64,000 nt of DNA, from NCBI GenBank assembly GCA_000004985.1, contig GG738886.1; one strand, given 5' to 3'. Position 1 is the stretch's first letter. The number at the start of each line of letters is the position of its first letter. The position numbers were made by a program, and so were the translations under genes. The notes beneath the pieces were generated by a model. It was not told the origin of the DNA. It made no database searches and saw nothing but the letters and a program-made list of their open reading frames with translations. Positions 11,259 through 51,302 of this stretch are shown here, piece after piece. The stretch is from Naegleria gruberi. Its lineage: Eukaryota.

Positions 11259-11329
11259 TCGGGTGTGGTATAGTGGTAGCATTCCAGACTGTCACTCTGG
11301 CGACCCGGGTTCAATTCCCGGCACTCGAG
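11259..11329 (+). tRNA. tRNA-Asp (anticodon GUC)
   Basis: TCGGGTG acceptor pairs with CACTCGA. Anticodon stem CCAGA/TCTGG with loop CTGTCAC (GTC). T-arm CCGGG-TTCAATT-CCCGG. Discriminator G. A T5 run follows 6 nt downstream. Confidence 0.8.
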
Positions 11330-15763: not shown

Positions 15764-16423
15764 TTTATTAGAATGTTGAAGTAAATGTATGTAATGGAAC
15801 GTACCTAAAGCATCGTGATATTGAATGTTTTTTTTCAAAATTACTTTTTAATTTTTCTTTTATTTTTCAAATTTTAAAGTTTAACGGTAAATATGGGAGG
15901 TGCTGAGATTATTTTTGTTGGTAAAACCAAACAACGTTGCAATTCTCTAAAACCGATTCAATCATCATCTTGCTATACAATCACAAAGAACTCAATTCAA
16001 GGTTTAATTCATCATTAATTAAATTGAAATACCAAATGCAAGTTTTGATAGGACTTCCATTCAATGATTTACTGTTTCGACTTGCTATAGTAATCCTATA
16101 TCCCATTAAGGAATTTGGACCCCTCGTTTATCTCTCTTAATCCCATTCGGAAAGCAATCACCAAAACAACCTGAGAAACTAAGCTTTTGATCCTTAAGGA
16201 AAGCCTCAATTTCAAAAAAATTGGTGTAAGAAGAGACAGGGAGAGAATGCGATTCTTTTTGAAAAATCCAAATACTGGATATTATGATAAGGGGGCATCT
16301 ATATGTTTGTCCTTATCGGCCTTATTAGCAAGGTTGTTATCCTTATCATCATTATCTTTATTTTCAACATCAGGATTAATATCCTTAAAAAGTTGTGGTG
16401 ATGAGGAATTTTCTTCTATTAAG

Positions 16424-19400
16424 ATGCTATCATCATCACCGTCATCATTAACAAGTTTAAATAATTCTAATGGGATAAGAACAAGATCAAAGTATCATTC
16501 TTCATCATCCCTTGTACTTTTATTCATCATTATTTCAATGATACTAGTTTCATGTTTCATGTGTGAACCAATTCAGGCCATCTCTTGTAGTGGAATAGAT
16601 TCCAACGACCTCACTGCTTGCTCTGGGATGGGGACTTGTATTCAGGATGAAACATGCCAATGCCTTAACGGATATTCAGGCGCTAATTGTGAGTATGTGG
16701 AGTGTTTTGGAGTTACAAATGAACCTGGTAATGAGGTTTGCTCTCGTCACGGGCAGTGTTCATCACCAGACAATTGTCAATGCGATTCTGGGTATTATGG
16801 CTCTACATGTTCCATCACAACTTGTTTTGAGAAGTGGAGTAACTTGTCGAATAGCAACAACATTTGCTCTGGGCATGGTACTTGTTCATCATTGGACGTT
16901 TGTGAATGTAATGCTGGATACTTTGGTAGCGAATGTGAAAAGGATCTTTTCGCTGGGTACAAACTAATTAGTATTAGCCCAGTAGTGATAGCAAAAAATT
17001 CACCTGACAATGTTGAATTGAAAGCAAGTATTGCCCTTCCTTCAATGGTTCTATCCTCTGCCTACTCACACGATGGTTCACAACCTTTACCATTTGTTGT
17101 TTCCAACTCTACAACTTCTATTGTTATTACAGATACGGTAAATGATGCTTTTGGTCAATTGTTAGTTCAGGAAGCAGATAGAAAAGCAGGTGAACTTTAC
17201 AATCTTCCATGTGATTTTAACATTTCCAATCCCGACCAAGAACTCAATAGTTTGACCATCATTAGAAATGGTGGAGTCTATTGTTTTCCAAATGGTGTAA
17301 CTATAAGAGGACACACATTTATTATTGTCGGTACAGAAACAGTCCTTTTCAAATCTCCTTTTGTATATTATTATGGAGCTTCCTTTTACTATCTGGAATG
17401 TGCCTCCTATAGGAACGTTTTCTGGTTAACCTATGACCAAGGAGATAATGGAAACTTCTTTTCTGGAGATATTCATGGAACTGTTATTGGAATTTCTCCT
17501 TATCATGGAATTCAACTTTACGATAACTTGGTGGGGGCTGTATGGTACACTGGTGGAACAGATATGATTCTATTCGATGTGAATATTTTACCACCAATAA
17601 CCTTCAATTCAAATGAAAGTTTTAGTCGAGATGATTGCATGGAAACAAGTTGTTATGGAATTTCATTCCGATTGAATAATACTTGCTTTGGAAGAGGTCA
17701 TTGTGTGAAGAATGATACTTGTTTGTGCAATACGGATTCATACGGAAGTAATTGTTTAATTTCAATTTGTAATGGTGTCTACGGAAATGAAACCAATGTA
17801 TGTAGTGGTCATGGTGAATGCCAAAGTAAGGACAGTTGTGAGTGCGAAAGTGGTTATTATGGAAATTGGTGTGAATTGACCACATGTTTTGGAGTCCAGA
17901 ATGACCAGCCGAATACTTGTAATGGGCATGGATTGTGTTCCAAATTGGATACTTGTGAATGTGCTTCTGGTTTTGGATATGGTGGTTCAAGTTGTGAAAT
18001 TCCAATCTGTAATGGAACTATGGCTAATGAAAGTAGTGTTTGTCTATCAAGAGGTCATTGTGTCCAACCAAATATGTGTAGTTGCCAATCAAGTTATTCA
18101 GGGTCAAACTGTGAAATTGCTAATTGTTTTGGAATTATTTCAAATGACAGCTCAGTTTGTTCTGGTCATGGGTCTTGTAATTCTGTAGATACTTGCACTT
18201 GTTCCATTGAATACTACGGAGCCGATTGCTCACAATTTGATTGTTATGGCATTCAATCAGTGAATAGTTCTGTTTGTTATGGAAGAGGACAATGTATTAA
18301 TGTTAATACTTGTTCATGTTCACAAGGATACTATGGCAATGAATGTGAAATCTCCATGTGTGATGGTATTTTGGGCAATTCCTCCCAAGTTTGTTCTAGT
18401 TATGGACAATGCAAGGATACGGATGTGTGTGATTGCCAATTGGGCTATTTTGGTGTGTTTTGTAATGAAACAACATGTAATAGTATAGCAATGAATGACT
18501 CAACAGTATGTAATGGACAGGGAACTTGTTGGCCATTGGACACATGTGTTTGCTCCAATGGATATGATGGCTCTAATTGTCAAAATCCTATTTGCTTTGG
18601 AATTGTTTCCACTAATACCTCTGTTTGTGGAGGTCATGGAGTTTGTTCGCAACCAAATATTTGTCAATGCAACCAGGGATATTACGGATCCCAATGTGAA
18701 ATAGTCACCTGTTCTGGTATCATGTCAAATGGATCAACAGTGTGTTCAGGACAAGGGCAGTGTTCTGATATGGACATATGCCAATGCAACAACCATTACT
18801 ATGGATCTAATTGTGAAAAGTTTGATTGCTTTGGTGTATCCTCTCTCTTAAACACCTCATGCTCTGGTCATGGTACATGTCTTGATTACAATACTTGCCA
18901 ATGTTACTCTGATTATTATGGAAATAATTGTGATGTTACCAAATGTTATGGTATTTTCAGTAATTCATCCAATGTTTGTTCATCTAAGGGAAGTTGCCAT
19001 GTACGAGATACTTGTATCTGTTCGAATAATTACCACGGTTCTTATTGTAACATAACAAGTTGTAATGGAGTTTATTCTAATGATGCTTCAGTTTGTTCCG
19101 GTCATGGTTCATGTATTGGGTACGACACTTGTCAATGTTTGAGCGATTATTCTGGAAGTAATTGTCAAGGAGAAATAGTTGACCCATTTGCTGGATTTAG
19201 AATTATTTCAGATTCTTCAGTTTCAATTTCTATTGATTATTTCCTGACAGATTGGCAACCAGTTTTGCAATCCTATACTCGTTACTATGCCTCAAGTTTA
19301 CTTCTTAAAAGTATTTCCTATTTGGATTCAAATATTCAATATCTTCCACATTCGAGTGCAGTTATTCTAAACAGCACAAGTGCACAGGGCATCAATATTG

Positions 19401-22400
19401 TCAACAAGATGAAAACCATCAAGTCCCAGTTATTGGCTTCATTAACCTGCACTAAAACTTACACAAACACTAACTCTCCAAATACTTTTATAATCAAACA
19501 TGGAGGTGTAATTTGTTTCACAGGAGGAATGACATTCGGGCCAGAAAGAACTATTATCATTGTGGGAACAGAGCCTGTCATATTCAAACTCCCATCCTTG
19601 CAGTATAGTGCTCTTAATATTGTTTTTTTGGAATGTGCCTCATATAGAAACTTTTTCTGGATTTTGGATTCAAATAGTTTTATTAAGGGAGCAGATAAAA
19701 CAAAGAATTATCAACCACCAATTCATGGAACATTTATTCAACTCTCTGGAACTATTTCTTTGAGAGGTTACCTTGCAGGTAGTGTATGTGCTTCGAACAT
19801 CAATACTCTTCTCCACGAAGTCACATTTTATGATCCAACCACTTTTGACCCTTTCCAAAGTGTCACTTCACAATGTAATTACACCCTCTGTTACAACATT
19901 CTATCAAATAATCAATCAGTGTGTTCAGGTAAAGGTAATTGTTCTGATTACAACACTTGTGTTTGTAATACGGATAGTTATGGATCTGATTGTTCTTTAT
20001 TTAAGTGTAACGGAATTTTGAGTTCAAACTCAACTTTTGTTTGTAATGGAAGAGGTAAATGTGTAGGGCCAGATGTCTGTTCCTGTAATCCAGGTTATTA
20101 TGGAGATTTTTGTGAGCTGACCACATGTAATGGAATTGAAAATACCTCGCCTCTTGTTTGTAATGGAAGAGGTGCCTGTAATCATTTCAATAGCTGTTCC
20201 TGTAGCTCTACATTTGGGTATGGTGGATCAGATTGCGATATTCCAATTTGCTATCAAAAACTTGCAACCAATCGTTTAGTTTGTAGCTCAAGAGGTGATT
20301 GCTTGGGACCAAATGTTTGTAATTGTACCGAAACTTATCTTGGTGATAATTGTCAACTGACCACTTGTGCTGATATACTTTCAAACTCTTCTCTTGTTTG
20401 TTCAGGCTTTGGATCATGTGTTGGCTATAACAATTGCACCTGTCATACAGGTTTCTATGGAGAAACTTGTGCAGAATATGATTGTTTCGGAGTTAATAAG
20501 AATAATCCAAATGTTTGCTCTTCAAAAGGCGAATGTATTACTGTTAATAACTGCACATGTCAAGATGGCTTTTTGGGTAATAATTGTTCCTACACTACTT
20601 GCTTTGGAGTAAGAAGTGATTCGCCTACAGTTTGTAATTCGAAAGGTTCCTGTAGAGCCAAAGATGTTTGTGAATGTTGGAATGGATATTTCGGAAGTAA
20701 TTGTACTCTGACAAGTTGTGGAGGGATCTATTCAAATGATAGCTCTGTGTGTAATGGACATGGTTCTTGTTGGCCAGCGGAAACCTGCACTTGTTTATCT
20801 CAATATGGATATACAGGTCAATTGTGTGAAATTCCAATTTGTTATACCATAGCAGCTAGTGATCCTTTAACCTGTTCTTCTCATGGCTCCTGTGTTGGTG
20901 TCAATACATGTGAGTGCCAAGCAAATTATACTGGATCCAAGTGTCAAGTTACATCATGTCAAGGAATTCTATCAAACGGCTCACTTGTTTGTTCTGGGCA
21001 TGGTTCATGTATTGAACATGATAATTGTACATGCCTAGCTGGTTACTTTGATACCGCCTGTAATCAATTCACATGTAATGGAACCAACTCCCAAGACAGC
21101 TCAGTTTGCTCTGGAAAAGGAAGTTGCGATTCATATAATAATTGTTCTTGTCAAGCGGGCTATTATGGACCTAATTGTGAAAAGACAATGTGTAATAACA
21201 TTTTGAGTGATAATCCATCTGTGTGTACATCTCGTGGTAATTGTATTGCCCCAGAAGTTTGCAGTTGTAATGAGACTTATTTTGGTACTAATTGTGAGTT
21301 GACTACTTGCAATGGAACTGTTTCAAATAGCAGCTCGGTATGTTCAGGATCAGGAGTTTGTTGGCCATTCGATACCTGCACTTGTTACTCTGACTTGGTC
21401 AGAGAATTCGAAGGTCAATGGTGTGAAAAACGTTTGTGGGATCCTTTCGCTGGATATCGAATGGTATCTCACAATGGTTTAGTTTACCATTTTGATGATA
21501 ACAACAATTTCTACACTCCTGATATTCATACCAATACTAGATATTATCGTTCAAGTATGATTTTAGATATACTTACAAAGATAACACCTACACTCAATTA
21601 CACATCTGATAATGGAGCTCACATTGATAGTGTTAATACTCCCAAAGCATCAGCCTTGGCTGCACTTATGAAAAAGAAAGGTAATTCCATGTGGACACTT
21701 CCATGTACTAAAACAGTTAACAATTCAAGTGATTTGCCATGGATTAGTAAGAGTGAAATTATGATTCGTCACGGAGGTGTTTTCTGTTTCAATATTGAAG
21801 CTTCTTTTCACAACAATATAACCATTATCATAGTTGGAGCTGAACCTGTTGTTATGAAAGTTCCTTCAATTCAATACTCTGCAGTCAACTTTGTATTTGC
21901 AGAATGTGCTTCTTATAGAAATTTGTTTTGGTTTATCACAAGTTATAATCCAAGTTTCATTCAAGGAGGAAATAGAGGGACTGGATATGAGCCTCCAATT
22001 TATGGAACTTTCTTCCCAACCTCAGGTGGTTCCTTCCAACTTGCTGGTCCTTTTGCAGGAAGTGTTTGGGTAACCGGTAATGCATGGACTGTTTTTATTG
22101 ATGTTACTGTTTATCCACCATTGTCAACTGATCCATATGAACCAACAGTTGGTCAATTTTGTAATTATACTCAATGTTTCAATGTTAAATCTAATTTGAA
22201 TACTACATGTTCCGGTAGAGGTCAGTGCATTGATTATAATACATGTGTTTGCAATGCCGATGCTTATGGAGTTGATTGTTCAATCTCCAAGTGTAATGGC
22301 ACATTTAGTAATGTATCAACTGTTTGTAATGGACATGGTTCATGTATCGCTAAAGATACTTGCCAATGTAATACAGGATACTATGGAGAATGGTGTCAAT

Positions 22401-25400
22401 ATACAACATGTGGAGGAATTGAAAGCACTTCACCATTGACTTGTAGAGAAAGAGGTACTTGTATTGCCTATAATCAATGTTCTTGTAATGTCACCAAAGG
22501 ATACAATGGTAATGACTGTGAAATTCCTTATTGTAACAACATTTTGGGAAACACTTCAACTGTTTGCAGTGCTCATGGTTCTTGTGAATTGCCAAACACG
22601 TGCAATTGTTCAGCAAACTATTTTGGAACATTTTGCCAATATACCACTTGTGCAGGCATTGAAACATATAATTCATCAGTTTGTATTGGTAGAGGTCAAT
22701 GTACACTTTACAATAATTGTACTTGTAACTCACCTTATTATGGATCCAATTGTGAACAATTCAAGTGTTTTGGAGTGAATAACAACTCTAGTACTGTTTG
22801 TTCTGGAAGAGGTATCTGTACAGATTATAACACCTGTGTTTGTAATGCTGGATATTTAGGATCGAATTGTGAAATTTCATCCTGTTTTGGAATTTTAAGT
22901 AATGTGTCCCTTGTTTGTAAAGCTCATGGAGTTTGTGTAGCTACGAATACTTGTGTCTGTGCTGCTAATTACATGTCCAGTGATTGTTCTGTGACTTCCT
23001 GTTCAGGAATCAATTCAACTTGGTCTTCAGTATGTCATGGAAGAGGTTCATGTTGGCCTTACAATACATGTAATTGTAATGCCAAATTGGGTTACACTGG
23101 AAATGATTGTAATGAGCCAATGTGTGACGGTCTTACAAACTCTGATCCTTATGTTTGTAGCGGAAGAGGAGGTACTTGTGTTTCTCCTAATCTATGTGTC
23201 TGTAACGATCCATCAAAATATTTTGGTAAATTGTGTGAATACACCTATTGTCGAGGTGTTCCAACCAATCTTACTGACACAGCACTCTTCTGTTCTGGAA
23301 ATGGTATTTGTACAGACTATAATTACTGTTATTGTTTTAGTGGATATACAGGAACTGAGTGTGAGTTGGATATGTTTGCAGGTTACAGATTCGTCACCAA
23401 TAAGAATGTTTATGTTTTGAAGAATCAGATTTATTACTTGCCTGCCAATATCGCCATAGGCCCAATGTTGAGTGCTGCTGGGCAGAAGACATACCTTCCT
23501 TACCAACAAGCAGTGAAAACCAATTTGAGAGTTGATGCTACATTGTTGAATGAGCTCCAAATGAGAGCTATGGGTTTAAGGTATAATTTCTTCCCTTGTG
23601 AACATTATATCAAGGACGCTTCAGTATTTGGAAAGAACATAGAATTGAGGGGAGGTGTGTACTGCATTCAGAATCCATGGACAATTGATGGACATAACTT
23701 TACCGTAATTGGTAAAAAACGAACCATTTTTACACTTCCACAGCTGATATATAAATCAGCAAAGTTCACCTACTATGAATGTGCATCTTATAGAGATGTA
23801 ATATTTTATGCCGGTGAAACTACTGGCTACAGCAATTTCACAGGACCTATCGATGCAACCATTTTTGTAAATTCACCAGGTGCAGCAGATTACTACGTGA
23901 ACGGTGATATTAATGGAGCAATCTATATATTTGGAAAACTTGGATCTAACGATGCTCCACCTACTGGTACTGTCTACACTACAGATATGAAATTTATTGC
24001 ACCATACACATTTGATCCAGCTGTTAGATACATTGAATCCAAGTGTAATTATTTCACATGTTTTGGAATTGGCTCTAATATCAATACTACTTGTTCTGGA
24101 AAAGGAAAATGCATAGGCATTGATACTTGCTCATGTATTTCTGGGGCGTATGGGCCTGATTGTTCTCTCAGAATGTGTAATGGAACTTTAGGAAACTTTT
24201 CCAATGTTTGCAGTGGTCATGGTTCATGTATTTCCACTGATATTTGTCAATGTAATGCAGGATTTTATGGGCAATGGTGCCAATACACAAAGTGTTATGG
24301 ATTAGAAAATACTTCTCCAACTGTTTGTTCAGGAAGAGGTTCTTGCTTGTCTGAAAATAATTGTATTTGTAATTCTACTTATGGATACGAAGGTTCACAA
24401 TGTGAAACTCCAATTTGTGGTGGACAATTGGGTATTTGTGCTAGTTCAAGCAGAGGAAATTGTACAGCTCCTGACACTTGCTCATGTTTGGATCATTATA
24501 GTGGTCAATTTTGCCAATGGACTACTTGTAATAGCGTACCTTCTAATTCATCAAGTGTTTGTTCTGGAAGAGGAATATGTGCTGCATATAATACTTGTCA
24601 ATGTAAAGCAGGATATATTGGATCGATCTGTGAAAAGGATGTCTTTGCTGGATACAAATTAATTAGTAACAAGGCAGTTCTTTTAGCAAAGAATTCAAGA
24701 GCTAGCTCTGTGCTGGCAGCAAGTATTGCCCTTCCTTCAATGACAATTAGACCACCAACATTTTTAAATCCAGATAAGGTCTATCCATATGTTGCAAGTG
24801 GTAAGTCTGTAATTACAAAGCCAACCGATTCCTACTATCAAACTTTAATGACCGAATTATCAAAGAAATTCGATGAGCTCATGTCCGCTCCTTGTGACTA
24901 TGTAATTTCAAAACCAGATACTGAAATGGGTCAGAAAATTCTCATTGAGCATGGTGGCGTCTATTGTTTCCAGAATGGTTGGAACATTAATGGTCAAAAG
25001 TTTACAATTGTTGGAACTGAGCCAGTTATTTTCAAAGCTCCATATATCAAGTATTCTGGAGCTAACTTTGTATATTTGAAGTGTGCTTCATATAGAAACG
25101 TGTTTTGGGTCACTCAATACTACAACTTGACTGGCAGAGTAAATTGGGTTAACAGTAATTCATTTTCTGGAACAGTTCATGGCACAATAGTTGCTAGATA
25201 TGGGTATGATTATTTAGTTTCCGATGATATACAAGGAGCTATTTGGTTTTATACTCAAGAAGATGGATATATCACTTTGAAAGATGCTAAACTTACAACA
25301 CCTCCAACATTTGATCCTTACATGCCATATGTTACTGGATCTTGTGATACTTATACTTGTTTTGGTATTGATCCAACTTCGAATATGAGTTGCTCAGGTA

Positions 25401-28400
25401 GAGGTGTCTGTAAAGATTACAATACATGTACATGTCAAGATGATTCCTATGGTATTGATTGTTCCATTTCTAAATGTTATGGAATTTTTGGAAATGTGTC
25501 AATTGTTTGTTCCTCTCATGGTAATTGTACATCAAAGGATACATGTACATGTAGTGAAGGATACTTTGGAGACTTGTGTCAATACACTTCATGTGCTGGC
25601 ATTCCAAATAACTCTACAAATGTCTGTAACCAGAGAGGTGTTTGTAATATTTACAATTCTTGCACTTGTAACACAACTTTGGGTTATGATGGATCGAATT
25701 GTCATGTTCCAATATGTAATCATCTAGTAGGAACATGTACAGATCTATTCAGAGGTAACTGTACTGCTCCTAATGCATGTTCATGTGAAAATCATTATTA
25801 TGGGCCTTGGTGTGAAAAGACAACTTGTGGTGGATTTGAGTCAACTAATACACAATCTGTTTGTAATGGAAGGGGTAATTGTACAGCTTATGAAAAGTGT
25901 ACCTGTTTACATGGATATGCAGGAGCATTTTGTGAAGAGTATAGTTGTTTTGGAGTTGTGAGAACTCTTCCGTCAACTTGCTCTGGAAGAGGAGCTTGTT
26001 CTTCAATTGACCAATGTGATTGTAGCGCAAATTATTATGGATCTAATTGTGAAATTAGCAAGTGTAATGGTAAATTTGGAAATGAGTCTACAGTGTGTAG
26101 TTCTAATGGTCAGTGTATTGAGACAAATATTTGTAATTGTTCAGAGCATTATTATGGAAATTGGTGCGAAAAGACGACTTGTTTTGGAGTTGCTTCCAAT
26201 GAGTCAAATGTTTGTTCACATAGAGGACAATGTAAAGCATTCAATACTTGCCAATGCAATCAAAATTACTTTGGAGATAATTGCGAGTTGACTACTTGTA
26301 ATAATCTTGCTTCAAACTCTGGTTTGGCTTGCAATTTGGTTGGCAATTGTACAGATTACAATACATGTGTTTGTCCTTATGGATATACTGGTTCATGGTG
26401 TGAACAGACTACTTGCTTTGGTGTAGCCACAAGTTCTCCAAGTGTTTGTAATGGACATGGTAATTGTACAACTATGGATATGTGTAGTTGTGATCCTAAA
26501 TATGGTTATGGTGGAAGTAATTGTAACATTACAACATGTGATGGAGAATTGTCTACCTCTTCTCAGGTCTGTAACTCACATGGTACATGTATTGGACCAA
26601 ATCAATGTCAATGTGCTCCACATTATATTGGTGACAATTGTCAAGTGACAACTTGTTTTGGAATTCTGTACAATGACTCTAGTGTTTGCTCAGGAAAGGG
26701 TTCTTGTGATGGATTCGATAACTGTACATGTGAACTTGGTTATTCTGGAGCAGAATGCGACCAGTACACATGCAGTGGAGTTTTCAATTCAAATCCCTTA
26801 GTTTGTTTCGGTAGAGGAAACTGTACTGAATATGATATCTGTGTTTGTGAAGCAAATGCCTTTGATTTTGATTGTTCTGGTGTTTCTTGTAATGGATTTA
26901 TCAATGCAGATCCAATGGCTTGTTCTTCACATGGTTCATGTACCCAAAATCAATAGTGTAATTGCTCTGAAAATTATCATGGTGAATGGTGTGAGCTCAC
27001 AACTTGTAATGGAATTGATTCGAATAGTACTGAAGCATGTTCTGGAAGAGGAAGATGTGTAGATTATAATAGTTGTGTCTGTTCGAATGGATACTATGGG
27101 GATGACTGTCAGGATTACAATTGTTATGGTATTTCACATTTTTCAAATTTGACATGTTCCGGATATGGTAATTGTTCCGATATCGACACATGTGAATGTT
27201 TTGAAGATTCTATTGGTTTAGATTGTTCCGTCAACGTTTGCAATGGTCTTCCTATGAATTCCTCATTAGTTTGTTCAGGACTAGGCAGTTGCACTCGACC
27301 AAATTATTGCAATTGTTCAGATAACTATTTTGGAAGTAATTGTGAATGGACCACATGTTATTCCATCGCATCATTCTCTCCATCCACATGTTCTGGAAGA
27401 GGAAATTGCTCTGATTTTGATAAGTGTATATGTAATTCTGATACATTTGGTTCCGATTGCTCTCTCTTCAAATGCAACCACACCCTTGGCAATGAAACTC
27501 AAGTTTGTAGTGGACGAGGTTCATGTATTGGCACTGATGAGTGCAATTGCACTGAGAATTATCACGGAGAGTTTTGTGAATTTACTGAATGTTTCTCTCA
27601 ACTTTCTAATGAAAGTTCAGTTTGCTCTGGAAAAGGAAAATGCATTGAGTTCAATAATTGTTCATGCCAAGATGGATATTTCGATCAAGATTGTTCTCAA
27701 TTCCAATGTAATGATACCTTCAGCAATGAAACCACAGTTTGCTCCTCAAGAGGTTTTTGCATTGATTCGAACAAGTGCAATTGCTCAGAAAATTACTTTG
27801 GACTGAATTGTGAATTGAGCATTTGCTTTACAATTCTTTCTAATGACAGCAGAGTTTGTTCTAGAAGAGGAATTTGTGTTGATTATCAAAACTGCTCATG
27901 TTATGATGGATTTTATGGTGAAAGTTGTGAGTTTGCTGTAAGTGCAGTGAACAATCAATCAAATTCCACTCAATTGAATAATCAAACTATTGATTCCAGT
28001 AATGTAACCATGAATAATAATTCATCGGTGGTTTTTAACAATACTGATAACAGTACAAATACTGATAATAGTAGTGTTGTGGTCACTAATCACACAATTT
28101 CAGAAGACAATACAACACGTTCTAATTCAAATGGAACTGTTTATAATAACAATAGTACAGACCTTTCTAATGAAACAATTTCAAATAATGGAACAGTTTC
28201 TGCTAACGCAAATGTTACTATCCCTGACAATTCTACTTCTTCCACTAATCAAACTGTTTCTCCAAGTACTGATTCATCAAATGGAACTGTTTCCAATAAT
28301 ACTGTAAATGCAACAGCTTCTGATAATACTACCACTGATAATTCCAACATTACAATTTCGGATAATACCACTTCACCTGGATCCAATAATCAAACTATTT

Positions 28401-31400
28401 CTCCAAGTGTTGATTCATCAAATGGAACGATTTCAAATAACACTAATCCTTCGGTAGTTTCGAACAGCTCAACTGTTTCAAACTCTTCTTTTACTAACGG
28501 AACAGTTTCCAACAGCACAGTCACTTCAAATAGTAGCACAATTACTTATAATACCACAATTTCATCAAACGAAACAATTTCGGTTAATGTAACAAGCAAC
28601 ACATCAAAAATTACAAATTCAACCTCAATCTTGAACGAAACTGTTCCTGTAATGCCTGAGCCTGATGTTGTGGTTGCTTTGCCGGTTGCAATTATAAAAC
28701 GAATGAGCTCGAACGTGTTCAGCTCATGCGATGATATTAGAGTGGATGGCTCGCAAAGTTTCTCACAAGATTCGACCTATCTTGACTATTATTGGAATTT
28801 ATTGGAAGCAAGCTCTTTGACTAGTTTACAAAGTTTGCCTAATAGTCCAATCATTGTCATTGACTCTACATTGAAGCCAGGACAATATGTTGTTTCACTA
28901 AAAGTTGGAAATGGAAGAAATAGTTCAGTGAACTATTCGAAACCTTTCACCAAGTCAGCAAATCCACTTCCAAAGATTTATATTGCTAATTCTTTGATTG
29001 AAAAGTATGGAAATCAATTCCCAGTAACCATCAAGAAAGTTATCACAGAATCAACTTGCCAAAAGGAAAAATCAGTAATTAGTTGGAGTCAATTAAGTGG
29101 ACCAACAGTTAAATACTCAATTGACAGTTTCAGTAATCTTGCTATTGCCTCATTGACTACCTATGGTTTCCATACTTACATCTTCCAAGTTTCAGCTCAT
29201 TACCCTTCAAATCCATTAGAAAGAGTTTCTGCCAATGTAACACTTGTTACAAAATCTCCTGAATTGCAACTTGAATTATTGACAACTGATGCAAATTCTA
29301 ATTACACAACTATTGTAATTGGATACACAGATCCAGAGAGTGCTTATAATACTCTTTCTGAGGAATGGAAATGGACTTGTTTGAATAATACGAATCCAAG
29401 TTTAATTTCCTTCTTGGAATTGATTTCTAAAAACAAGCAAACTGAAGTTAGATTTGATGGTTCATCACTATTTCGTCAAAACATACCTCGCTCTATTGAA
29501 CTATCTTTAAGAATTTCCAAGTCTGATAGAACAATCTCCAAGTCAATTATAGTTTACTTTGGATTGGTTCCACCTATTGTAAATATTATTTCAGTAGAAC
29601 CAAGCACTTTGTACGTTCTTCCTGGAGAACCTCTCAGTATTCAGACATTAGTCACCAAAGGAAATGTTAATGTTACATTGAATGGACAAGTTGTTGAAGT
29701 ATCCGATCAACAGCCAACCTTGGATGTTGACACTAAACTATTAGAACAAGGTTCTGAAAATACAATTACAATCACATCGACTGATCCAGTGACTGGAATG
29801 TCTAGCTCTTCAAGCTATACTTTCAAAGTTGCTACCTATCCGAAACCATGTGCTTGTTTCATTTCTCCTTTAAGTGGAATTGCATTAGAAAGCGATTTTG
29901 AATTCTATTGTACGAATTGTAAAAATTCAGAAAATAATATTGACTATCGATATGGATTTATAGATGACAGATCCGAAACAAGAATTCTATTATTCGATTC
30001 TGGTGAAATTTATGCTTCCAAGTTGCCATCTCCATTTTCTGGAAATACTGTCAAATGTTTCTTTGATATTGTCGATACAGAGACAGGTGCTTTTACAACA
30101 GTTTACAAAAATGTCACTATAGAAAAACCTCTCGTTACAAAAGTCGAACAAGTTCAAGGACTAGTCGAATCATGGACTATTGTGGGATCCAACTATTTCA
30201 GTAATGGAGATTTCAGTAAGAGTATTTATCAATGTGCTTCAACTTCAAGAACTGATTCAGTTTTATTGAGACAGATATTAGGAAATGAATATTTAGAAAG
30301 ATCAGAAAGTATTGAATGTGAGAATGGTGTTGATATTTCAGGAGTGTGTAAATGTCATGATGGATATATTGGTAAACATTGTGATAAGGCGATTAGTGAC
30401 TTTTCTAATATTCAAGGTACTAAATTGCAAGTACTCAGAGAAATGGTGACCATTGCCAATAGCACTGGTGAAATGAATAATCAATATTTGTCATTGCTGT
30501 CATTTGCCATTGATTCGATACTTGTCAATTATCAATATTTAGATACAAATACTATATCTGAATCAATGTATACTTTGAATATGTTTTTGGAATATTCCTT
30601 ATCTGATGAAAGTTTGAGATTACCAACCGGGGTTGATAAGTTATTAGAATCTAGTCAATATTCAACATTTAATTACATTACTGATAAGCAATACCTTACT
30701 GATCAAACGTCAAATGCCTTAAAATTATTGAAATCTCTCAAATTGTCATCTCAGTTACAAGCAAGATCTGTTTCCATGTCAAATGCCAAGAGAAACATTA
30801 AGGGATCATTCTTTAGTATAGTTTTGGGTAAGAGCTTGTTAGCTGATCATCAAAATAATATTCAAGATCCCCATTCATCTTCGTCCATAAGTATGGAGAA
30901 TGGTTTCTTTGCTTATACTGCAAGATCTAAAGTTTCATCTATCAAAAAGCCATATATTTACATCCTGTCTGTGACTGATGACATTTACTCATTGGGAACT
31001 AAACTCAAAGTTGTGGAAAAGAATAACAATGTTCAAAAGGTTTCAAATTTGGTTTCTCCAATAGTTTCTGTAGATTTTGTGGATGTTGCCACTACCATGA
31101 ATCCAACAAAAATAATTTATTCGATTCCAATTAATTTGAATGGATCAACATTTGAATTGAGAAGAGGAACTTTTGATTTATCAGTCAAGACACTGGACCA
31201 GTATTGTAAAAACTTTGATGAAGGTTCTATTAAAGTTCTTTCAGACTGTACCTTAATTTCATTGACTGCAACACATGCCAAATGTCAATGCTCCAAATTT
31301 ACAAATGTATTTGTTATTGAAACAACGACCATTTCAACTTATTCCTACACCTACTTGGCAGCTATTGGTTTCTCTCTTGTAGCTGTCTGTTCCATTGGAA

Positions 31401-31924
31401 CCTTGGTAATTCTCTCAGTTTGCGTATGGTGGAAATTCAAGAAACCTAAACTTTCCAAAAAGAGAAGTCTTGTCTTTACGGATGCCTCTGAAAATGAGAT
31501 TCAACTCAGAATTCAAGAAATTATTCTCGGAGACCATACATACAGTAATTCAGAAACTAACTCTGATGATTCATTGATTATTGATGTGATAGATGATTGT
31601 CCATCAGGAGGAAGCAGTGGAACAGGTTCAAATAATGGAAGAATGAGAAGTTATTCAATGCAAGAAAGACCAACCACAATGATGAGTTCATCCTCTCCAA
31701 GAGGTGGAGTTGGTGCCAATATACTTTCATCTTCACCAAGAGGAACAAGAAATCGTTCATCTTCAGTTGCTCCATTGATTATTCAGGAAAGCCATGAATT
31801 GGATTCGAATGCATCAAGTTCTGATGAATTATTAAAGAATCATTCAGAGGGAGGTGTTAAACGATCTGGAAGTGGTATTTGGGATTTGAGAGAAGATGGC
31901 TTTCTAGAACATGAAAAATTTTAA
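16424..31924 (+). CDS. Giant (about 5,170 aa if read through) type-I membrane protein with about 100 tenascin/laminin-type EGF repeats, a mucin-like stalk, a GPS-like motif and a single C-terminal TM. Single exon; interrupted by one in-frame TAG at 26954..26956 (ORF-track ORFs 16187..26956 and 27149..31924 share one frame).
   Basis: A putative signal peptide follows the ATG at 16424 (LVLLFIIISMILVSCFMC). The repeat is C-S-G-x-G-x-C-x(5)-C-x-C-x(3)-Y-x-G-x-x-C-E with NxS/T sequons throughout. A non-EGF module (FAGYKLIS...HGGVYCF...IVGTEPVIFK...ECASYRNVFW) recurs 5x at nt about 16943, 19190, 21440, 23380 and 24640. An N/S/T-rich stalk spans 27950..28650. TM is YLAAIGFSLVAVCSIGTLVILSVCVWW (about 31345..31430), then a Ser-rich tail. 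Confidence 0.7.
27950..28650 (+). repeat. Low-complexity Asn/Ser/Thr-rich segment (dense N-glycosylation sequons) encoding the mucin-like stalk of the giant protein
   Basis: NQSNSTQLNNQTIDSSNVTMNNNSSVVFNNTDNSTNTDNSS...; imperfect repeats (SNGTVSNNT... recurs). Confidence 0.5.
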
Positions 31925-37138: not shown

Positions 37139-38668
37139 TTACTTGTGCTTTTGAATGAGAGCTTCTAATGTTTCTGGATCAGCTCCTTGAACTTCTTCAA
37201 TCTTGGCACCATTCTTGTAGATTTGGAAAGTTGGCATACATTGAATACCACACTTGGCAGCAACTTCATTGCATTCATCAACATCAACCTTCAAAAAGAT
37301 TGCTTCAGGATAAGTTGTACTCATAGAAGCAAAGAGTGGAGCAATAAATTGGCAAGGTCTATTGTACAATATTAAATTGAAATATTATAGTATAAATATT
37401 ATAAGACAATAGACAATAGAATTAACAAACTTACCCACACCATTGTGCAGTAAAATCAACAACAACCAACTTTTCACTCTTCAAGTTAGTGTCAAATTCT
37501 TCTTGTGAGTGAATCTTGACAACATCACCCAATCTAGCCTTATCAGCAACAACTCTAATGGCTTCTCTGTCAGAACTGACACGGAGACTTTCCATCAATT
37601 TAGTTACCTTGTCAACATCTTCTTCTTCAATACTTGATTCCAACTCGGAAACAATCTTTTCCACAGCAGAAACATTTCCTTCGTCACACTTGGTCTTGAA
37701 TTCCAAATCATCCTTAGCTTCTTGGACACTGCATTCAGCTTCAAGTCTGGTTGGGAAAAAGTCGTCATACTTTTGACAGATTGGGAGATACTTGTCCAAG
37801 TCAAACTTGTTGACACAATTATCGTGCAACCAAGTCAAAATACCAGCAGCACTTCTTTCGCCATCGAATTTAATTGGATGTTCCTTCAAATCAGCTCCAG
37901 CCTTGAACAATTTCATGTTTGGAATAGTACCTTCTGGGAAGAGTTTTTCAGAATAGTCATTAAGGTCAGAATTCATCTTGGAAATGACAATATTTGGTTC
38001 ATCGGCAAGGACTTTGGCAACCTTTGCAATGAGTGGAGCAATCATTTGGCAAGGTCTATTTCCAATTAATATATAAAACGATAAGGAAGTATTAAAGAAG
38101 TATATTGAAATAGGTCAATATTATTCCAAATTAAATCGACAACTTACCCACACCAATCAGCATAGATATCAACAAAGACATCTCTAGCAGGATTCATAAC
38201 AATTTCATCAAAAGCAGAAGCAACAAGCTTGGTAAGACCCTTCTTGTCTGGGAATTCATCATTTGAAAGTCTTTCTTCAGACTTGATGGAAGGTGTAGCA
38301 GTTCCATCTTGAACAGATTGCAACCAAGTCTTGAGAGCTTCCTTATCGAGTGGTGATTTAACAGTGTTTCCAAACTTTTTACCCTTTTCTTCCAACATGA
38401 CTGCAAAAACATTTTCCTTCAAATTTTCAATATCAATACCAACAACAGCAGCAATTGATGCACCAACATAGTTGACATTTTCTTCTGGGTGAACACAACA
38501 TTTGAACCAATTAGCATTTAAAAGAACTGAATCATCTGTTGAAGTCAAGAGGGAGGAAATTTCTTCCACAACAGCATCACCAGTCTTGTAATAGACCAAA
38601 ACAGCATACTTTTCAGTGGATTCAAGTTCTGGAATATTGCTTCTATCAAGTTCAGTGAGAGTGGTCAT
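37139..38668 (-). CDS. Thioredoxin-fold / PDI-like protein with a b'-like region and two thioredoxin domains; about 453 aa; exons 38668..38148, 38055..37435, 37358..37139; introns 38056..38147 (92 nt) and 37359..37434 (76 nt)
   Basis: Both GTAAGT..ATAG introns split the active site at the same point, WCG|PC. The result is VFVDIYADWCGPCQMIAPL... and [23 protein letters not shown]...FLKVDVDE...CMPTF, a classical thioredoxin. Confidence 0.8.
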
Positions 38669-39018
38669 CTTTATATCATTCCGAATAGAATTTCATCATT
38701 TCCAATTTTAATCAATTTTAATCCAATCATTAACAATTTGTTTTAAATAGCATACATATTCAGCAACAGCATAGACATTGTAATCACACAATGATGAAAA
38801 CAACCAACCTTTTATATAACAAAAAAGTAGTTAGAGGGTTCAATATGTTGTTCTATTTTTTTCGTTTGTGTTTTGTTTCAAGTTTGTCTGGCTTAATTTA
38901 GTCTTCCAAATTGCACCTATTAATCGATGAAGGCGAAAATTGATTGTGTTGGAACTTGATGATATTAATAATAATTTCACCTTGTTCATATTTCAAATAT
39001 TAAAAGCTATAGGGTAAT

Positions 39019-39923: not shown

Positions 39924-40033
39924 ATTTGTAAATAAATTGAAAAGTAATTTAATTGGCTGTCATATTTCTCATAATCATGATACTGTCATTGAGATACATT
40001 GAAAACAATTTAATTGTAAATATTATTAAAAAA

Positions 40034-42457
40034 ATGGCTAAACATCCACCTTTAAAGATCAAAACACAGCATCGGAATCCCGAAGAAGTGAAAGCACTCT
40101 TTTCCGAGAATATTAAATACATTGAATCATTTCTAGATAAATTTAACATTTCACCACAAGAATCTGATTCAATAGTAGATAATTTATTTGAAAAAAACCT
40201 TTCATTGCCTCTCTTTGTTTCAATTTATGATGATACCAATAGCAAGATGAAATTTAGTAATATATTGACCTTTTTGAAATATTTATTAACTGTTGGATCT
40301 TCTGCAAAAGTTACAGGAGAGGATATTACCGAATTGATTGTAAAAGTTTCACCTTGCATTGAGTTTATTCAATATGGACTAGATAATGATATTGGAAATA
40401 GTTTTGATAAATTATTGAGTGGAAATGAACGAATTGATTTTTCATCCGATAAAATTGTTGAGGAATGGCTCGTATCAACTTACCATATCTACTTTTGCAT
40501 GATTAAACAATTCATAGCTACAGGTAAACTTTCTTTGAAAATAATTCAATATTTTAGGAAAGCACTTCTTCATTTACTAGTTATTTTGAGACATATTGGT
40601 AATAGAAAAAGAATGGCAATAATGAATGGAGACACTGATTTCAACCTTTCATTCTCAGAAAAGTCATTTATGGTTTTATGTTCTAATTTACTCAAAAAGG
40701 GATTTAAACATGGTTTTTTGCAATCCAATTATGCTCATCAAAGAGTTTTCTTGGAGGGTATCTACTATTGTTTTGATAATAGGATGAATTATGCCAAGTT
40801 TCTACACACCTTGTTAGTGTCTACAGAAAAGAGAGGATTTAGAACGATGCGTTCCTTAATAAGAAATGATATTCAAGATATTGGAGAATTGACTGGAAAT
40901 GATATTATTCCACATGGAATAAGTAAGGGTGACACTGCCACAAATGTTGCTACTAGAGCGGTCAAATTTCTATGTTCTCTGTATGGTAAAATGAAGGATA
41001 TAAATATGACACTACTTCCAGTTCTCCTTGAATTCCTACCTTTCGTGTTGAAAGTTTTGAATTGGACCTTTATCCCAGCATTTTTAAAAGAAGTTGCAAC
41101 ACAAGTTTGTGCAGTACTCGTAGGAACATTTGAACATGCAGCAACACCAACAGTGGAGAATGAACATTATCTCAACATTATCAGAGACGCCCTTCCATTC
41201 CTATTTAACTATGTTTCAACAAAGATTCAAGACCTTTCTAGTGGAACGCAAGTACTGTGCTATAATATGATTATTTGGATTGCTAAAACACGAACTTCTT
41301 TCACTATCGAACAATTGACTCCACTGCTAGAGATTTATGAACCTAAATTAATAAGTAAGAAAGAGTACTTGGAAATGATCAAATCTGTATGGGTTCGTAC
41401 CGTTGGTAGAGAACATGTTCTAAATCCATTTTTTATGAAACGATTGTCAGAAATGTCAGAAATTGAAATTCTACATGAGGAAGCCTTGCCAAGAGTGAAA
41501 ATGATTATGCATCTTTTGAATATATTTTCACAATCTATTAATAATTACATTGATTTAAAAGTAGTGGCCGCTTTAACCATTAAGAAAATTGAGGAATTTC
41601 TGAACAAGACTGAAAGCACTACTTTACAGGACTTTGATATGAGCAATACCTTCTGTAAAATTTTAATCCATTGTATTGATAACATTACAGATGTGGAGAA
41701 TATCTTTCCAATTCTACACGACCTCATTAAGGTAGCCATCAGTACTGAGCATATTCATCGAACTATCAGTTCTTCTGATATTTCTGATTTGAATGATTTT
41801 ATCTTTAGACTTTTCAAATATGAAGAGGGATACTTTTTAGATTTGGTTCGTTTATTGCATGACAGAGGTTTATTGGAAAAGTGTTGCAAGGGAGAGGAAT
41901 CAGGTGAACTCATTAATAACCTTATACTGCCCTATGTACTTGAACAATCAAAAGGTGGTGAGAGTCGTGTTCCAAGTCAAGCTACTTGGGTACTCATCAG
42001 TTTAGTTGTCTCTGATATGGTATCTTCAAGAAAACTAGTCGAAAGGATCAAGCATCACATTATAGAGAGCTGTTCCTTCCTTCGTGATGGCCCTACAAAG
42101 TTTGACTTTTTACAGAGACCTTACTACAAGGCCTTACTGAGTCTTGCCACTTTAATCTTTGCATACTATCCAGAGGAGATGATTGACTATCTACTTCCAA
42201 ATAGTCAGGTTCTATTTTCCTCTGCACTTACATCACCTGACACTAGCAATTATTTCCCACTATTGTACAATTTTACATTGAGTGCTGCAGAGTATTTTTT
42301 GGATAATGATTTACTTTCTAAAAGTCCTGAGATGTTACTTTCACTTCAAGTGCTCTTTACATTTGTTCATTACATGCCACTGAATGTATCCAATATTATT
42401 CTAGTACGTCGAGTTGTGAATAAGTTTGATTTGAGTGTTAGGGAATTTTCTTCATAG
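40034..42457 (+). CDS. Large alpha-helical hypothetical protein, about 807 aa, single exon
   Basis: ATG at 40034 (aaaaaaATGgct). The ORF track's upstream extension starts at a non-ATG codon. No motif recognised; possibly HEAT/ARM-like. Confidence 0.55.
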   Translation: MAKHPPLKIKTQHRNPEEVKALFSENIKYIESFLDKFNISPQESDSIVDNLFEKNLSLPLFVSIYDDTNSKMKFSNILTFLKYLLTVGSSAKVTGEDITELIVKVSPCIEFIQYGLDNDIGNSFDKLLSGNERIDFSSDKIVEEWLVSTYHIYFCMIKQFIATGKLSLKIIQYFRKALLHLLVILRHIGNRKRMAIMNGDTDFNLSFSEKSFMVLCSNLLKKGFKHGFLQSNYAHQRVFLEGIYYCFDNRMNYAKFLHTLLVSTEKRGFRTMRSLIRNDIQDIGELTGNDIIPHGISKGDTATNVATRAVKFLCSLYGKMKDINMTLLPVLLEFLPFVLKVLNWTFIPAFLKEVATQVCAVLVGTFEHAATPTVENEHYLNIIRDALPFLFNYVSTKIQDLSSGTQVLCYNMIIWIAKTRTSFTIEQLTPLLEIYEPKLISKKEYLEMIKSVWVRTVGREHVLNPFFMKRLSEMSEIEILHEEALPRVKMIMHLLNIFSQSINNYIDLKVVAALTIKKIEEFLNKTESTTLQDFDMSNTFCKILIHCIDNITDVENIFPILHDLIKVAISTEHIHRTISSSDISDLNDFIFRLFKYEEGYFLDLVRLLHDRGLLEKCCKGEESGELINNLILPYVLEQSKGGESRVPSQATWVLISLVVSDMVSSRKLVERIKHHIIESCSFLRDGPTKFDFLQRPYYKALLSLATLIFAYYPEEMIDYLLPNSQVLFSSALTSPDTSNYFPLLYNFTLSAAEYFLDNDLLSKSPEMLLSLQVLFTFVHYMPLNVSNIILVRRVVNKFDLSVREFSS

Positions 42458-49812: not shown

Positions 49813-51302
49813 TTGTTCTCGAACAAGAGAAAACAAAACAATTGGAAGAGAAACATTGATGCAGATTCAGAGTTTGATTCATGCGGAAAAAAGAGAAAAC
49901 AAGATGAAGAATTGTTACCTGATGAAATTATAATTGAAATTGTATCATATCTTTCTAATTTTGAAGGATTCCGATTCATGTTTGTCAGTAAACAATTTAT
50001 GAAAGCTTGCCGATTAATTAGAAAATGTTTGATCACTTCTTTGGATTGCACTGCCGAATTATTAAGCCTATTTTGTGAATCACCATTCGCTGAGCAAATT
50101 CACTCCTTGGTGATTGATGTTCCAATCACTTGGGAATTCTTCAATCAAATCAAACTTAATTTTACAAATTTGAAAGAGTTGAATCTGTACGAAGTAGCAT
50201 TTCTCGATTTTTCAAATTATTTTGAAAGCAACCATTTAGAATCTTTAATAGTTCGAAACTGTAATAACATTAATCTCAATTCATTGCATTTATTCAATTT
50301 ACAACATATAGAATGTCCCCTAAAGTCATCCATGGGGTCGGTAATATCATTCATTCGAATACTTTCAGCTTAAAAAGCATTACACTGCATGGGAATGGAA
50401 ATGTGATTAAGGAGGCTCACTTGTTTAAAAATCTTCCAGCATTGGAATATCTTAAACTTGTCAGATTTAACATTCCAGTTTCACAATTTAAGGAAATATT
50501 GAATTGTAAAGGTTTAAAATCACTACATTTACAATTCATTACTAACACGAGTGCCATTCTTTTGGACCAAAAACATTCACAGTTGTTCAATTTGCCAACA
50601 TTAGAAAAATTAGAAAGTTATCGAGTAGATCTTGACCTTATGCAGATTCTTATCCAATCAATGATTGCTCCTCTATTGAAATATTTATCAATTGGGGTAA
50701 ATGGTGTCTTTAATTTTACACTTTCAAAAGCCTTTAGAGAAAATACATCTCTATCAAATATTGAAAACTTGTCTATTGAGAATCAGATAGAAAATATGGA
50801 AATAATTGAAAAAATTTGTGAAAAAATATCAAAGTTACCCTTAAACAAATTTGCCTTTTCTGGAAATTCACTATGTTTCTCAAAAATTTCAACATTTAAT
50901 TTATCAAATTTAGTTCAGTTTCGTTACAATGCATCCGAAAATGTAAAATATTTGAAAATATTCAATTCCCCTCACTTTGAAAAGTTGGAAATTTTACAAA
51001 TTAATTTTAACAATTATTCTGTAACAGATGAAGAATTAGAAGACTTTGCCAAATGCACTTCAATGCCAAATCTCACCAGACTTGAGTTTAAATATCATAA
51101 ACGACACCTATCAAAATTTACAGAGATTCTGTCAAATAATCCATGTTTCTGCAAAATTGAAATCAATTACATTTCCATTCTCAGATGTGGATGCCAAACT
51201 TCTCGTCCAAACATCCAATTATTTGAAAAAGTGTCAAGAGTTATTGTTAGAGAGCAATTTAATTTCTGCTTTTGGCAGAAAGATGTTGTACGATTCAAAT
51301 AG
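49813..51302 (+). CDS. F-box / leucine-rich-repeat protein with a frame discontinuity at about 50310..50375 (ORFs 49813..50373 and 50313..51302); start codon uncertain
   Basis: F-box LLPDEIIIEIVSYLSNF. LRR-like L-x-x-L-x-L repeats follow in both ORFs. A possible non-canonical 44-nt intron (GTCATC..TTTCAG) or a 1-nt indel in the tcccc run. Confidence 0.5.

Follow-up and report, generated by a model that had tools for sequence, protein, structure and literature searches.

The window analysed here, a 64,000-nucleotide stretch of contig GG738886.1 (assembly GCA_000004985.1) from Naegleria gruberi, contains a giant EGF-repeat reading frame for which a one-gene annotation, NAEGRDRAFT_51207 of N. 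gruberi NEG-M, already exists. Its annotated protein, XP_002674088.1 (4,968 aa; EFC41344 / XP_002674088, D2VPE3, P0074 below), was recovered by an exhaustive HMMER search and corresponds exactly to the translation of 16628..26566 joined to that of 26957..31921. Ten ORF-based models of the locus gave no match when looked up exactly, because the public model uses a different start and an intron. The two ORFs listed for this region (16187..26956 and 27149..31924), which the initial annotation had proposed to belong together, are one gene; their TTG 'starts' at 16187 and 27149, also taken from that list, are artefacts of bacterial-style ORF calling in a eukaryote. The features of the locus are as follows.

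16424..31924, + strand: proposed full coding region of NAEGRDRAFT_51207, 5,166 codons from the ATG at 16424 to the TAA at 31922-31924
16508..16564, + strand: hydrophobic core of a probable signal peptide, SLVLLFIIISMILVSCFMC, upstream of the annotated ATG at 16628
16949..17662, + strand: non-EGF module 1, an ice-binding-protein/DUF3494-like beta-solenoid by predicted fold
19187..19885, + strand: non-EGF module 2
21446..22165, + strand: non-EGF module 3
23375..24052, + strand: non-EGF module 4
24644..25348, + strand: non-EGF module 5, the copy used for the structure model
26567..26956, + strand: 390-nt 'intron' of the public model, read here as coding (129 EGF codons and the TAG)
26882..26998, + strand: 39-aa EGF unit holding the stop, VSCNGFINADPMACSSHGSCTQNQ before it and CNCSENYHGEWCEL after it
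26954..26956, + strand: in-frame TAG, a premature termination codon, codon 3511 counted from the ATG at 16424
27935..28663, + strand: Asn/Ser/Thr-rich, cysteine-free stalk with many N-x-S/T sequons
28508..30220, + strand: REJ domain, PF02010 (Pfam E=9.2e-14, 51.3 bits against a cut-off of 25)
30290..31342, + strand: single EGF unit, then a GAIN-like domain (five helices followed by a beta-sandwich) that ends just before the transmembrane helix
31283..31312, + strand: GPS-like motif CQCSKFTNVF, lacking the His of the canonical H-L|T cleavage site
31352..31432, + strand: single transmembrane helix (aa 5056-5082 of the frame)
After the transmembrane helix to 31921, + strand: Ser-rich cytoplasmic tail of about 163 aa

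Only two strong hydrophobic segments occur in the frame when it is scanned with a 19-residue Kyte-Doolittle mean and a cut-off of 1.6. The strongest is the N-terminal core (mean 2.82), followed by the transmembrane helix (aa 5062-5080, mean 2.50), and two weak segments barely exceed the cut-off. The only hydrophobic segment near the N-terminus follows the ATG at 16424, and the annotated start (MGTCIQ...) sits within an EGF unit downstream of it; the public model thus probably lacks about 68 N-terminal residues, including the signal peptide.

The upstream half had been described as consisting of EGF repeats throughout, which is incorrect: five non-EGF modules of about 235 aa are interspersed among the EGF arrays. 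An AlphaFold2 model of the fifth (pLDDT 65.8, pTM 0.69) is a beta-solenoid with a flanking helix resembling those of solved ice-binding proteins, and its top 31 Foldseek matches in the PDB are all DUF3494 ice-binding proteins (probability 0.99-1.00, TM 0.39-0.55). By sequence the module does not match Pfam PF11999, and even at E<=10 the Pfam search returned nothing for it save a chance match to TED. We regard these modules as ice-binding-protein-like beta-solenoids by predicted fold.

The downstream half carries the membrane-proximal machinery, and the transmembrane helix lies only downstream of the TAG, as had been pointed out; the same is true of the REJ domain. The GAIN-like region gave a moderate-confidence AlphaFold2 model from the family alignment (pLDDT 65.7, pTM 0.63), with which the top six PDB matches found by Foldseek are GAIN domains (E 2e-11 to 2e-8), the top matches including ADGRB2, BAI3, CELSR1, ADGRL3 and CL1. 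The proposed GPS-like motif is weak by sequence, with Pfam GPS (PF01825) scoring E=0.93 and 10.5 bits against a cut-off of 22.5, short of a canonical GPS, and the family profile aligning to the GPS region of ADGRL3 at E=0.2-0.3; it nevertheless lies within a predicted GAIN fold, and it is kept in paralogues as C-x-C-x2-3-[LF]-[TG]-N-V-F. One transmembrane segment follows the GAIN-like domain, not the seven or 11 of multi-pass receptors.

That the two halves form one gene is evident from the reading frame and from the paralogues. The frame runs open from the TGA at 16172 to the TAA at 31922, and the TAG is its sole stop in 5,245 codons, as the initial annotation had noticed; each of the other five frames has 201-585 stops over the same stretch (16172-31922). 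Downstream of the TAG, the gene frame has no stop in 1,654 codons, against 84 and 191 in the two remaining + strand frames. From the TAG to the TTG at 27149 there are 64 codons, which are open, as claimed, and encode perfect 39-aa six-cysteine EGF units. There are at least eight paralogues in N. gruberi, and these join signal peptide, EGF arrays, REJ domain, GAIN-like domain and transmembrane helix in one continuous protein; P0079, for example, extends from signal peptide to transmembrane helix in 1,810 aa, and the colinearity of P0001 with the locus begins 94 aa upstream of the TAG and extends to the C-terminus. A split into two genes, one for a secreted EGF protein that terminates at the TAG and one for a membrane protein that starts downstream of it, would agree only with the ORF list, in which a 1,591-aa ORF begins at the TTG at 27149, but TTG does not serve as a start in eukaryotes, the first ATG (27254) falls within an EGF unit with no signal peptide after it, EGF units cross the junction in phase with no intergenic sequence, and the homologues are single proteins. 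The downstream half having neither a start nor a signal peptide of its own, independent transcription of the two halves, which had been named as the finding that would overturn the one-gene view, is highly improbable.

The TAG itself lies in sequence of an entirely ordinary coding type. The 39-residue EGF periodicity passes across it uninterrupted, and it occupies the last, variable position of a C-x4-X-C-x-C loop. The earlier view that this is an unremarkable variable site agrees with the spread of residues at the equivalent position of 66 repeats (T27, N10, V6, I5, S4, Q3, K3, Y2 and others), where codons one step from TAG are present (three AAG, and TAT, TAC and GAG). No other stop and no frameshift is found across the 5,245 codons. 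Repeat mis-assembly or repeat collapse was considered and rejected, the 600 nt flanking the TAG having no close copy within the window. The sequence around the TAG was sought in JGI metagenome DNA both exactly and with third codon positions free, and neither scan gave a match. Separately, an ENA metagenome contig matches a different part of the window at 98.2% identity, indicating that a second N. gruberi-like genome exists; no sequence of it covering NAEGRDRAFT_51207 was found.

The public protein does not display the stop because the 390-nt intron of the model ends in that very TAG, its last three bases. The reading of the TAG as lying in real coding sequence stands, although it had been reached in ignorance of the existing one-gene model and of the intron with which that model skips the codon. 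A genuine intron, whether ordinary or a newly 'intronized' piece of exon, would leave the TAG untranslated; in its favour are its exact use by XP_002674088.1, its GT...AG ends, the CAG|GT context of the donor and a length that is a multiple of three. Its content argues otherwise. All 129 codons are open in frame and encode bona fide EGF repeats (Pfam EGF_2, 4.2e-11; EGF_Teneurin, 1.2e-9), and its GC content (0.379) resembles that of exons (0.36) rather than that of real introns (0.17-0.26). The three verified introns of the window are 42-92 nt long and all begin with GTAAGT and end with ATAG; the modelled intron is 4-9 times as long and has the donor GTCTGT. No GTAAG or GTATG donor is present between 25204 and 27938, and among all frame-preserving GT..AG pairs spanning the TAG there is no GTAAGT-type donor and none that convincingly keeps the EGF phase. 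Left unspliced, the frame has repeat spacings of 39-44 aa in 54 of 54 cases; joining 26566 to 26957 would take out 3.33 EGF units and leave one malformed unit of 28 aa and four cysteines, and spacings of 30 or fewer are found in none of 114 in the family. The choice of the best-scoring in-frame GT upstream of the stop's own AG also looks like the ORF rescue typical of ab initio predictors. The intron is thus not credible and is most probably an annotation artefact for stepping over the stop; the chance that it is genuine is small, and the public model, which conceals an in-frame stop, probably also lacks 130 residues of genuine EGF sequence. RNA-seq data for N. gruberi form dataset PRJEB23822 (PMC6142364).

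A stop in translated sequence could in principle be decoded, and readthrough had been offered as one of three explanations. Programmed UAG readthrough would give a secreted EGF/solenoid product on termination and a membrane-anchored full-length receptor on readthrough, a pairing that makes biological sense, if speculatively, and the 1,655 codons downstream are perfectly preserved. Recency or error would preserve them equally well, however, and the remaining evidence offers readthrough no support: the context CAA-UAG-UGU-AAU is not a known leaky one, the 120 nt of RNA 3' of the stop have no notable fold (z=+0.83, with 164 of 200 shuffles folding as well), the five tRNA genes of the window include no suppressor, and the stop is not conserved. 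The corresponding EGF arrays are unbroken in P0001, P0075, P0077, P0079 and P0086, although these are protein models and so could hide stops; the models of P0001 and P0077 (XP_002669… group) begin within EGF units, and that of P0078 is missing a conserved segment. A literature search on the gene identifiers and on Naegleria readthrough found nothing relevant. We consider readthrough very improbable, and give a similarly slim chance to the broader proposition that a real stop is handled in some non-trivial way, either by splicing of the GTCTGT...TAG segment ('intronization' following a nonsense codon) or by UAG readthrough yielding secreted and anchored isoforms of a giant adhesion receptor.

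Reassignment of TAG as a sense codon in N. gruberi has nothing in its favour beyond the single in-frame TAG and is effectively refuted, its probability being negligible. There is one TAG in 5,166 codons, and standard-code translations of window ORFs match N. gruberi database proteins exactly (EFC41342 and EFC41349). The statement that all other genes in the window stop with TAA or TGA is mistaken, as TAG ends four other ORFs of at least 150 aa (39953..42457, 50313..51302, 61906..62403 and 63308..63901), a use that also counts against reassignment. Selenocysteine or pyrrolysine-type recoding and organellar RNA editing are dismissed, the codon being the wrong one and the gene nuclear.

Two of the three explanations first proposed, a recent nonsense mutation and a sequencing error, remain in the lead. 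We favour a very recent single-base nonsense mutation in a coding exon of the sequenced haplotype, making this copy a nonsense allele or nascent pseudogene of a multigene family, and give this about an even chance of being correct. The coding sequence is colinear with intact homologues apart from the in-frame stop, and with at least eight paralogues the constraint on any one copy is expected to be lower. A sequencing or consensus error over a true sense codon (e.g. TAT or TAC for Tyr, AAG for Lys, CAG for Gln or GAG for Glu), which would leave the gene with some 5,166 uninterrupted codons, is the less probable of the two, though a serious contender. Everything else about the gene is intact (frame, cysteine pattern, REJ and GAIN domains, transmembrane helix), codons one step from TAG do occur at this position in other repeats, and the lack of any secondary lesion is as compatible with an error as with a very young mutation. 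The N. gruberi reference is a draft shotgun assembly from 2010, in which a single-base consensus error would look identical; the original shotgun traces of NEG-M, whose parent strain is NEG, belong to project ACER00000000. Against an error, the region is unique, making repeat mis-assembly unlikely, and the prior of striking one of the changes that create a stop, a class comprising 5.6% of the single-base changes possible in this CDS, within about 15.5 kb would appear small compared with that of a polymorphism in a heterozygote; N. gruberi is reported as heterozygous in a passage of PMC9928731 that cites Fritz-Laylin (2010). It is rough priors of this kind, rather than data from the locus, that lead us to weight a real mutation over an error.

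If the substitution is real, the following sequence of events can be proposed. The ancestral gene would encode a giant type I surface glycoprotein that begins with a signal peptide and displays an ectodomain of EGF arrays interleaved with the five solenoids, followed by an N-glycosylated stalk and, towards the membrane, by the REJ domain, the GAIN-like domain with its GPS-like motif, one transmembrane helix and the cytoplasmic tail. A single recent base substitution, expected to have struck a codon for Tyr, Lys, Gln or Glu, would then have created the TAG at 26954 in an exon, such that translation would halt at codon 3511, with either release of an anchor-less secreted fragment of 3,510 aa or degradation of the mRNA. 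On their own the 1,655 codons downstream could not be expressed, since they lack a signal peptide and their first ATG is inside an EGF unit.

The main value of these observations is as a correction that gives NAEGRDRAFT_51207 a model of some 5,166 codons; comparative and proteomic users of XP_002674088.1 / D2VPE3 are affected both by the missing residues and by the hidden stop. The stop by itself is an ordinary finding that raises no general biological question. Should it be real, the allele that NEG-M carries of this giant surface receptor of REJ/GAIN type is null or truncated, which may bear on how the axenic laboratory strain differs from wild N. gruberi.

The locus can be compared with several known situations. 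Its annotated intron shares every feature of the introns that ab initio predictors place over in-frame stops, with a 3' AG that is the AG of the stop, a length divisible by three, coding-like content and an atypical donor, and we find no feature in which it differs. Young unitary pseudogenes and nonsense alleles likewise have a homologous coding sequence that is intact but for one in-frame stop at a variable residue, and in multigene families they too strand functional domains downstream while intact paralogues exist; the locus differs from a typical young pseudogene in lacking a second lesion. With programmed readthrough, as in tobamoviruses (UAG-CAA-UUA) and in Drosophila and mammalian extensions, it shares an in-frame UAG and a long, intact, domain-encoding extension, but here there is no leaky 3' context and no stimulatory structure, the stop is not conserved in homologues, and what would be the 'extension' is an essential part of a protein that was ancestrally single, the half that carries its anchor. 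The protein itself is most reminiscent of the REJ/GAIN receptors (polycystin-1, PKDREJ, sea-urchin REJ and the adhesion GPCRs), with which it has in common a REJ domain above the Pfam threshold, a predicted GAIN-like fold with a C-x-C...F-T-N-V-F motif adjoining the membrane, and a large repeat-rich ectodomain. Those receptors have seven or 11 transmembrane helices whereas the Naegleria protein has one, its GPS lacks the catalytic His-Leu|Thr, and its EGF arrays are of the teneurin type and are accompanied by five DUF3494-like solenoids that have no counterpart among them.

The TAG at 26954-26956 is, as the initial annotation had described, the only stop in an otherwise continuous frame, which runs for 5,245 codons from TGA 16172 to TAA 31922; a frame-by-frame count of the remaining five frames of the same stretch gives 201-585 stops. 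In the 1,654 codons 3' of the TAG, the real frame has no stops and the alternative plus-strand frames have 84 and 191, and the frame is thus open on both sides of the TAG far beyond chance. Six-cysteine EGF units of exactly 39 residues continue across the stop (VSCNGFINADPMACSSHGSCTQNQ before it, CNCSENYHGEWCEL / TTCNGIDSNSTEACSGRGRC after it), and EGF spacing is kept through the 64 open codons that separate the TAG from TTG 27149; the use of TTG codons (this one and that at 16187) as ORF starts is an artefact of bacterial-style ORF listing. The stop takes the final place in the five-residue loop C-x4-X-C-x-C, and this position is indeed highly variable among 66 repeats of the same protein (T, 27; N, 10; V, 6; I, 5; S, 4; Q, 3; K, 3; M, 2; Y, 2; and others), with codons one substitution away from TAG (AAG three times, TAT, TAC and GAG) at equivalent positions. 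That the two halves are independent genes is excluded in practice, given that no intergenic sequence separates them and that the earliest ATG downstream of the stop (27254) falls within an EGF unit, with no signal peptide after it.

The suggestion that both ORFs belong to one gene is borne out by the public annotation. With the C-terminal 941 residues as query, an exhaustive HMMER search recovered a 4,968 aa protein from the same scaffold (EFC41344.1, XP_002674088.1, UniProt D2VPE3, NAEGRDRAFT_51207; here P0074), to which the translations of 16628..26566 and 26957..31921, joined, are identical residue for residue; the two ORFs are therefore already annotated as one gene. A word-index protein search missed P0074 despite 100% identity over most of each query, and when a protein is very long or repetitive, a negative from such a search is not to be equated with 'unannotated'. 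The annotated start, ATG 16628 (MGTCIQ...), is inside an EGF unit and gives a product without a signal peptide. Another ATG of this open frame, 68 codons further upstream at 16424, comes before the only N-terminal hydrophobic segment (SLVLLFIIISMILVSCFMC) and is more likely to be the true start, so that the public model is probably 5'-truncated; from ATG 16424 the gene has 5,166 codons, of which the TAG is codon 3511.

The public model removes the TAG with a 390-nt intron (26567..26956), the final three bases of which are the TAG itself. N. gruberi has short spliceosomal introns, three of which are verified in the window:

Verified introns in the window
2270-3874 (gene), cytochrome b5-desaturase: one intron, 42 nt, GTAAGT...TATAG
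EFC41416 (three exons): two introns, 92 and 76 nt, both GTAAGT...ATAG

The modelled intron differs from these in length (390 nt versus 42-92 nt; the related N. lovaniensis has a median of 80 bp, PMC6125883), in GC content (0.379, against 0.17-0.26 in the verified introns and 0.36 in the flanking exons) and in its donor (GTCTGT rather than the GTAAGT of all three), and there is no GTAAG or GTATG donor between 25204 and 27938. In the frame of the exons, the 129 codons that it holds ahead of the TAG are open, and their translation matches Pfam EGF_2 (E=4.2e-11, above threshold) and EGF_Teneurin (1.2e-9). As 390 nt correspond to 3.33 EGF units, splicing would leave one truncated unit (TTCDGELSTSSQ joined to CNCSENYHGEWCEL) that has four cysteines and is spaced by 28 residues. 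Without splicing, the 54 spacings of the frame all fall within 39-44 residues, and the 114 spacings examined across the family include none of 30 residues or fewer. With the open EGF frame, base composition, length, donor and broken spacing all against it, we conclude that the intron is an annotation artefact and that the TAG is in coding sequence. Among frame-preserving GT..AG pairs spanning the TAG, only the donor at 26567 combines a preceding exonic CAG with a GT at +5/+6, and an ab initio predictor would presumably choose it to rescue the long ORF.

At least eight N. gruberi paralogues (P0001, P0075-P0080 and P0086; 33-48% identity) share the C-terminal stalk, REJ domain, GAIN-like region and TM helix. 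P0079 (1,810 aa) is one uninterrupted protein with signal peptide, EGF, a non-EGF module, EGF array, stalk, REJ, GAIN-like region and TM helix, and P0001 aligns colinearly with the window frame all the way from 94 residues before the TAG to the C-terminus; over this stretch the two differ by exactly one 39-aa EGF unit. The ancestral form was thus one continuous polypeptide, and the family does not conserve the stop. On other N. gruberi scaffolds, the models of P0001 and P0077 start inside EGF units without a signal peptide, and P0078 lacks approximately 50-60 residues relative to P0075, including a conserved Cys cluster; stops, frameshifts or gaps may be hidden behind model 'introns' or truncated starts in other family members. 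A 1,536-bp metagenome contig (ENA ERZ929261, run ERR1078381) is 98.2% identical to 37619-39150, and a second N. gruberi-like genome therefore exists in public metagenome data.

Other genes in the window
1720-1793, 3913-3986, 8073-8143, 11259-11329 and 58761-58833: five tRNA genes
11765-13252, minus strand: ApoL-like protein with a long Gln/Pro-rich N-terminus (PF05461, E=1.1e-9)
46623-49661, plus strand: MAD1 mitotic-checkpoint homologue (E=7.3e-56)
51456-53261, minus strand: DUF4116-repeat protein (E=7.7e-49)

Translational readthrough of the UAG, one of the explanations originally offered, finds no positive support: its context is CAA-UAG-UGU, the 120 nt 3' of the stop do not fold better than shuffled controls (z=+0.83), the five tRNA genes in the window include no suppressor, and paralogues do not conserve the stop. 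Two of these tRNA genes are tRNA-Thr(AGT) copies with identical anticodons on either side of the cytochrome b5-fatty-acid desaturase fusion gene (2270-3874); the remaining three are Trp(CCA), Asp(GTC) and Met(CAT). Either readthrough or removal of the segment by splicing in the cell, through intronization of a stop-bearing exon piece, is most improbable. Reassignment of TAG is excluded, since there is one TAG in 5,166 codons, other ORFs are terminated by TAG (four others in the window, each 150 aa or longer, contrary to the initial statement that all other genes end in TAA or TGA), and standard-code translations equal the database proteins exactly; exact protein look-ups returned EFC41342 for ORF 5134-5889 and EFC41349 for ORF 56748-58670, both on a 358,576-bp scaffold of strain NEG-M. 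Mis-assembly of repeats is unlikely, as the window contains no close copy of the 600 nt surrounding the stop (best match 70-84%, over less than 135 nt).

A premature stop in exon sequence, whether real or an error, is thus left as the highly probable reading. A real nonsense substitution and a single-base consensus error predict identical sequence. We infer about an even chance of a real, very recent nonsense allele, favoured by the size of the mutational target (in this Cys/Tyr-rich 15.5-kb CDS, a stop would result from 5.6% of the possible substitutions), by the reported heterozygosity of N. gruberi (PMC9928731, citing the genome paper), and by membership of a multigene family that can tolerate losing one member; a consensus error is rather unlikely. 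In kind, this is an ordinary premature termination codon of a gene that was already annotated, hidden by a gene-model artefact of a common type, and it does not represent a novel class of element.

The heterolobosean architecture is noteworthy apart from the stop itself. The part upstream of the stop is not composed of EGF repeats only, as first thought; teneurin-type EGF arrays (Pfam EGF_2, EGF_TEN and EGF_Teneurin) alternate in the ectodomain with five non-EGF modules:

Non-EGF modules, approximately 235 aa each
16949-17662, module 1
19187-19885, module 2
21446-22165, module 3
23375-24052, module 4
24644-25348, module 5

The modules are 27-44% identical to each other, share the motifs FAGY...GGVYCF...IIVGTEPV...ECASYRN and have no Pfam sequence match. 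EGF arrays with FAGY...CAS modules also occur in several paralogues, with similar modules in P0075, P0077 and P0079. The top 31 Foldseek PDB matches of an AlphaFold module model of moderate confidence (pLDDT 65.8, pTM 0.69) are all DUF3494 ice-binding proteins (probability 0.99-1.00, TM 0.39-0.55), and it seems unusual for a giant EGF/REJ/GAIN receptor of an amoeboflagellate to contain such predicted ice-binding-like solenoids. About eight EGF units 3' of the TAG are followed by a cysteine-free Asn/Ser/Thr-rich stalk, a REJ domain (PF02010, E=9.2e-14), a single EGF and a juxtamembrane region of approximately 330 residues (30290-31342). The family-alignment model of this region, a helical bundle plus beta-sandwich (pLDDT 65.7, pTM 0.63), matches the GAIN domains of ADGRB2, BAI3, CELSR1, ADGRL3 and CL1 (E 2e-11 to 2e-8), and the region is predicted to adopt the GAIN-domain fold. 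The motif CQCSKFTNVF, conserved in paralogues, lies shortly before the single TM helix, which with the N-terminal segment makes up the only two strongly hydrophobic segments; the motif does not have the canonical His-Leu|Thr (Pfam GPS E=0.93, below threshold), and autoproteolysis at CQCSKF-TNVF is doubtful because the catalytic His is absent.

The ectodomain of the Naegleria protein is similar to those of polycystin-1/REJ-type proteins and adhesion GPCRs, although it is accompanied by neither a multi-pass membrane region nor a canonical GPS. The combination of REJ, GAIN and a single TM helix in Heterolobosea may be of interest for studies of how polycystin and adhesion-GPCR ectodomains originated.
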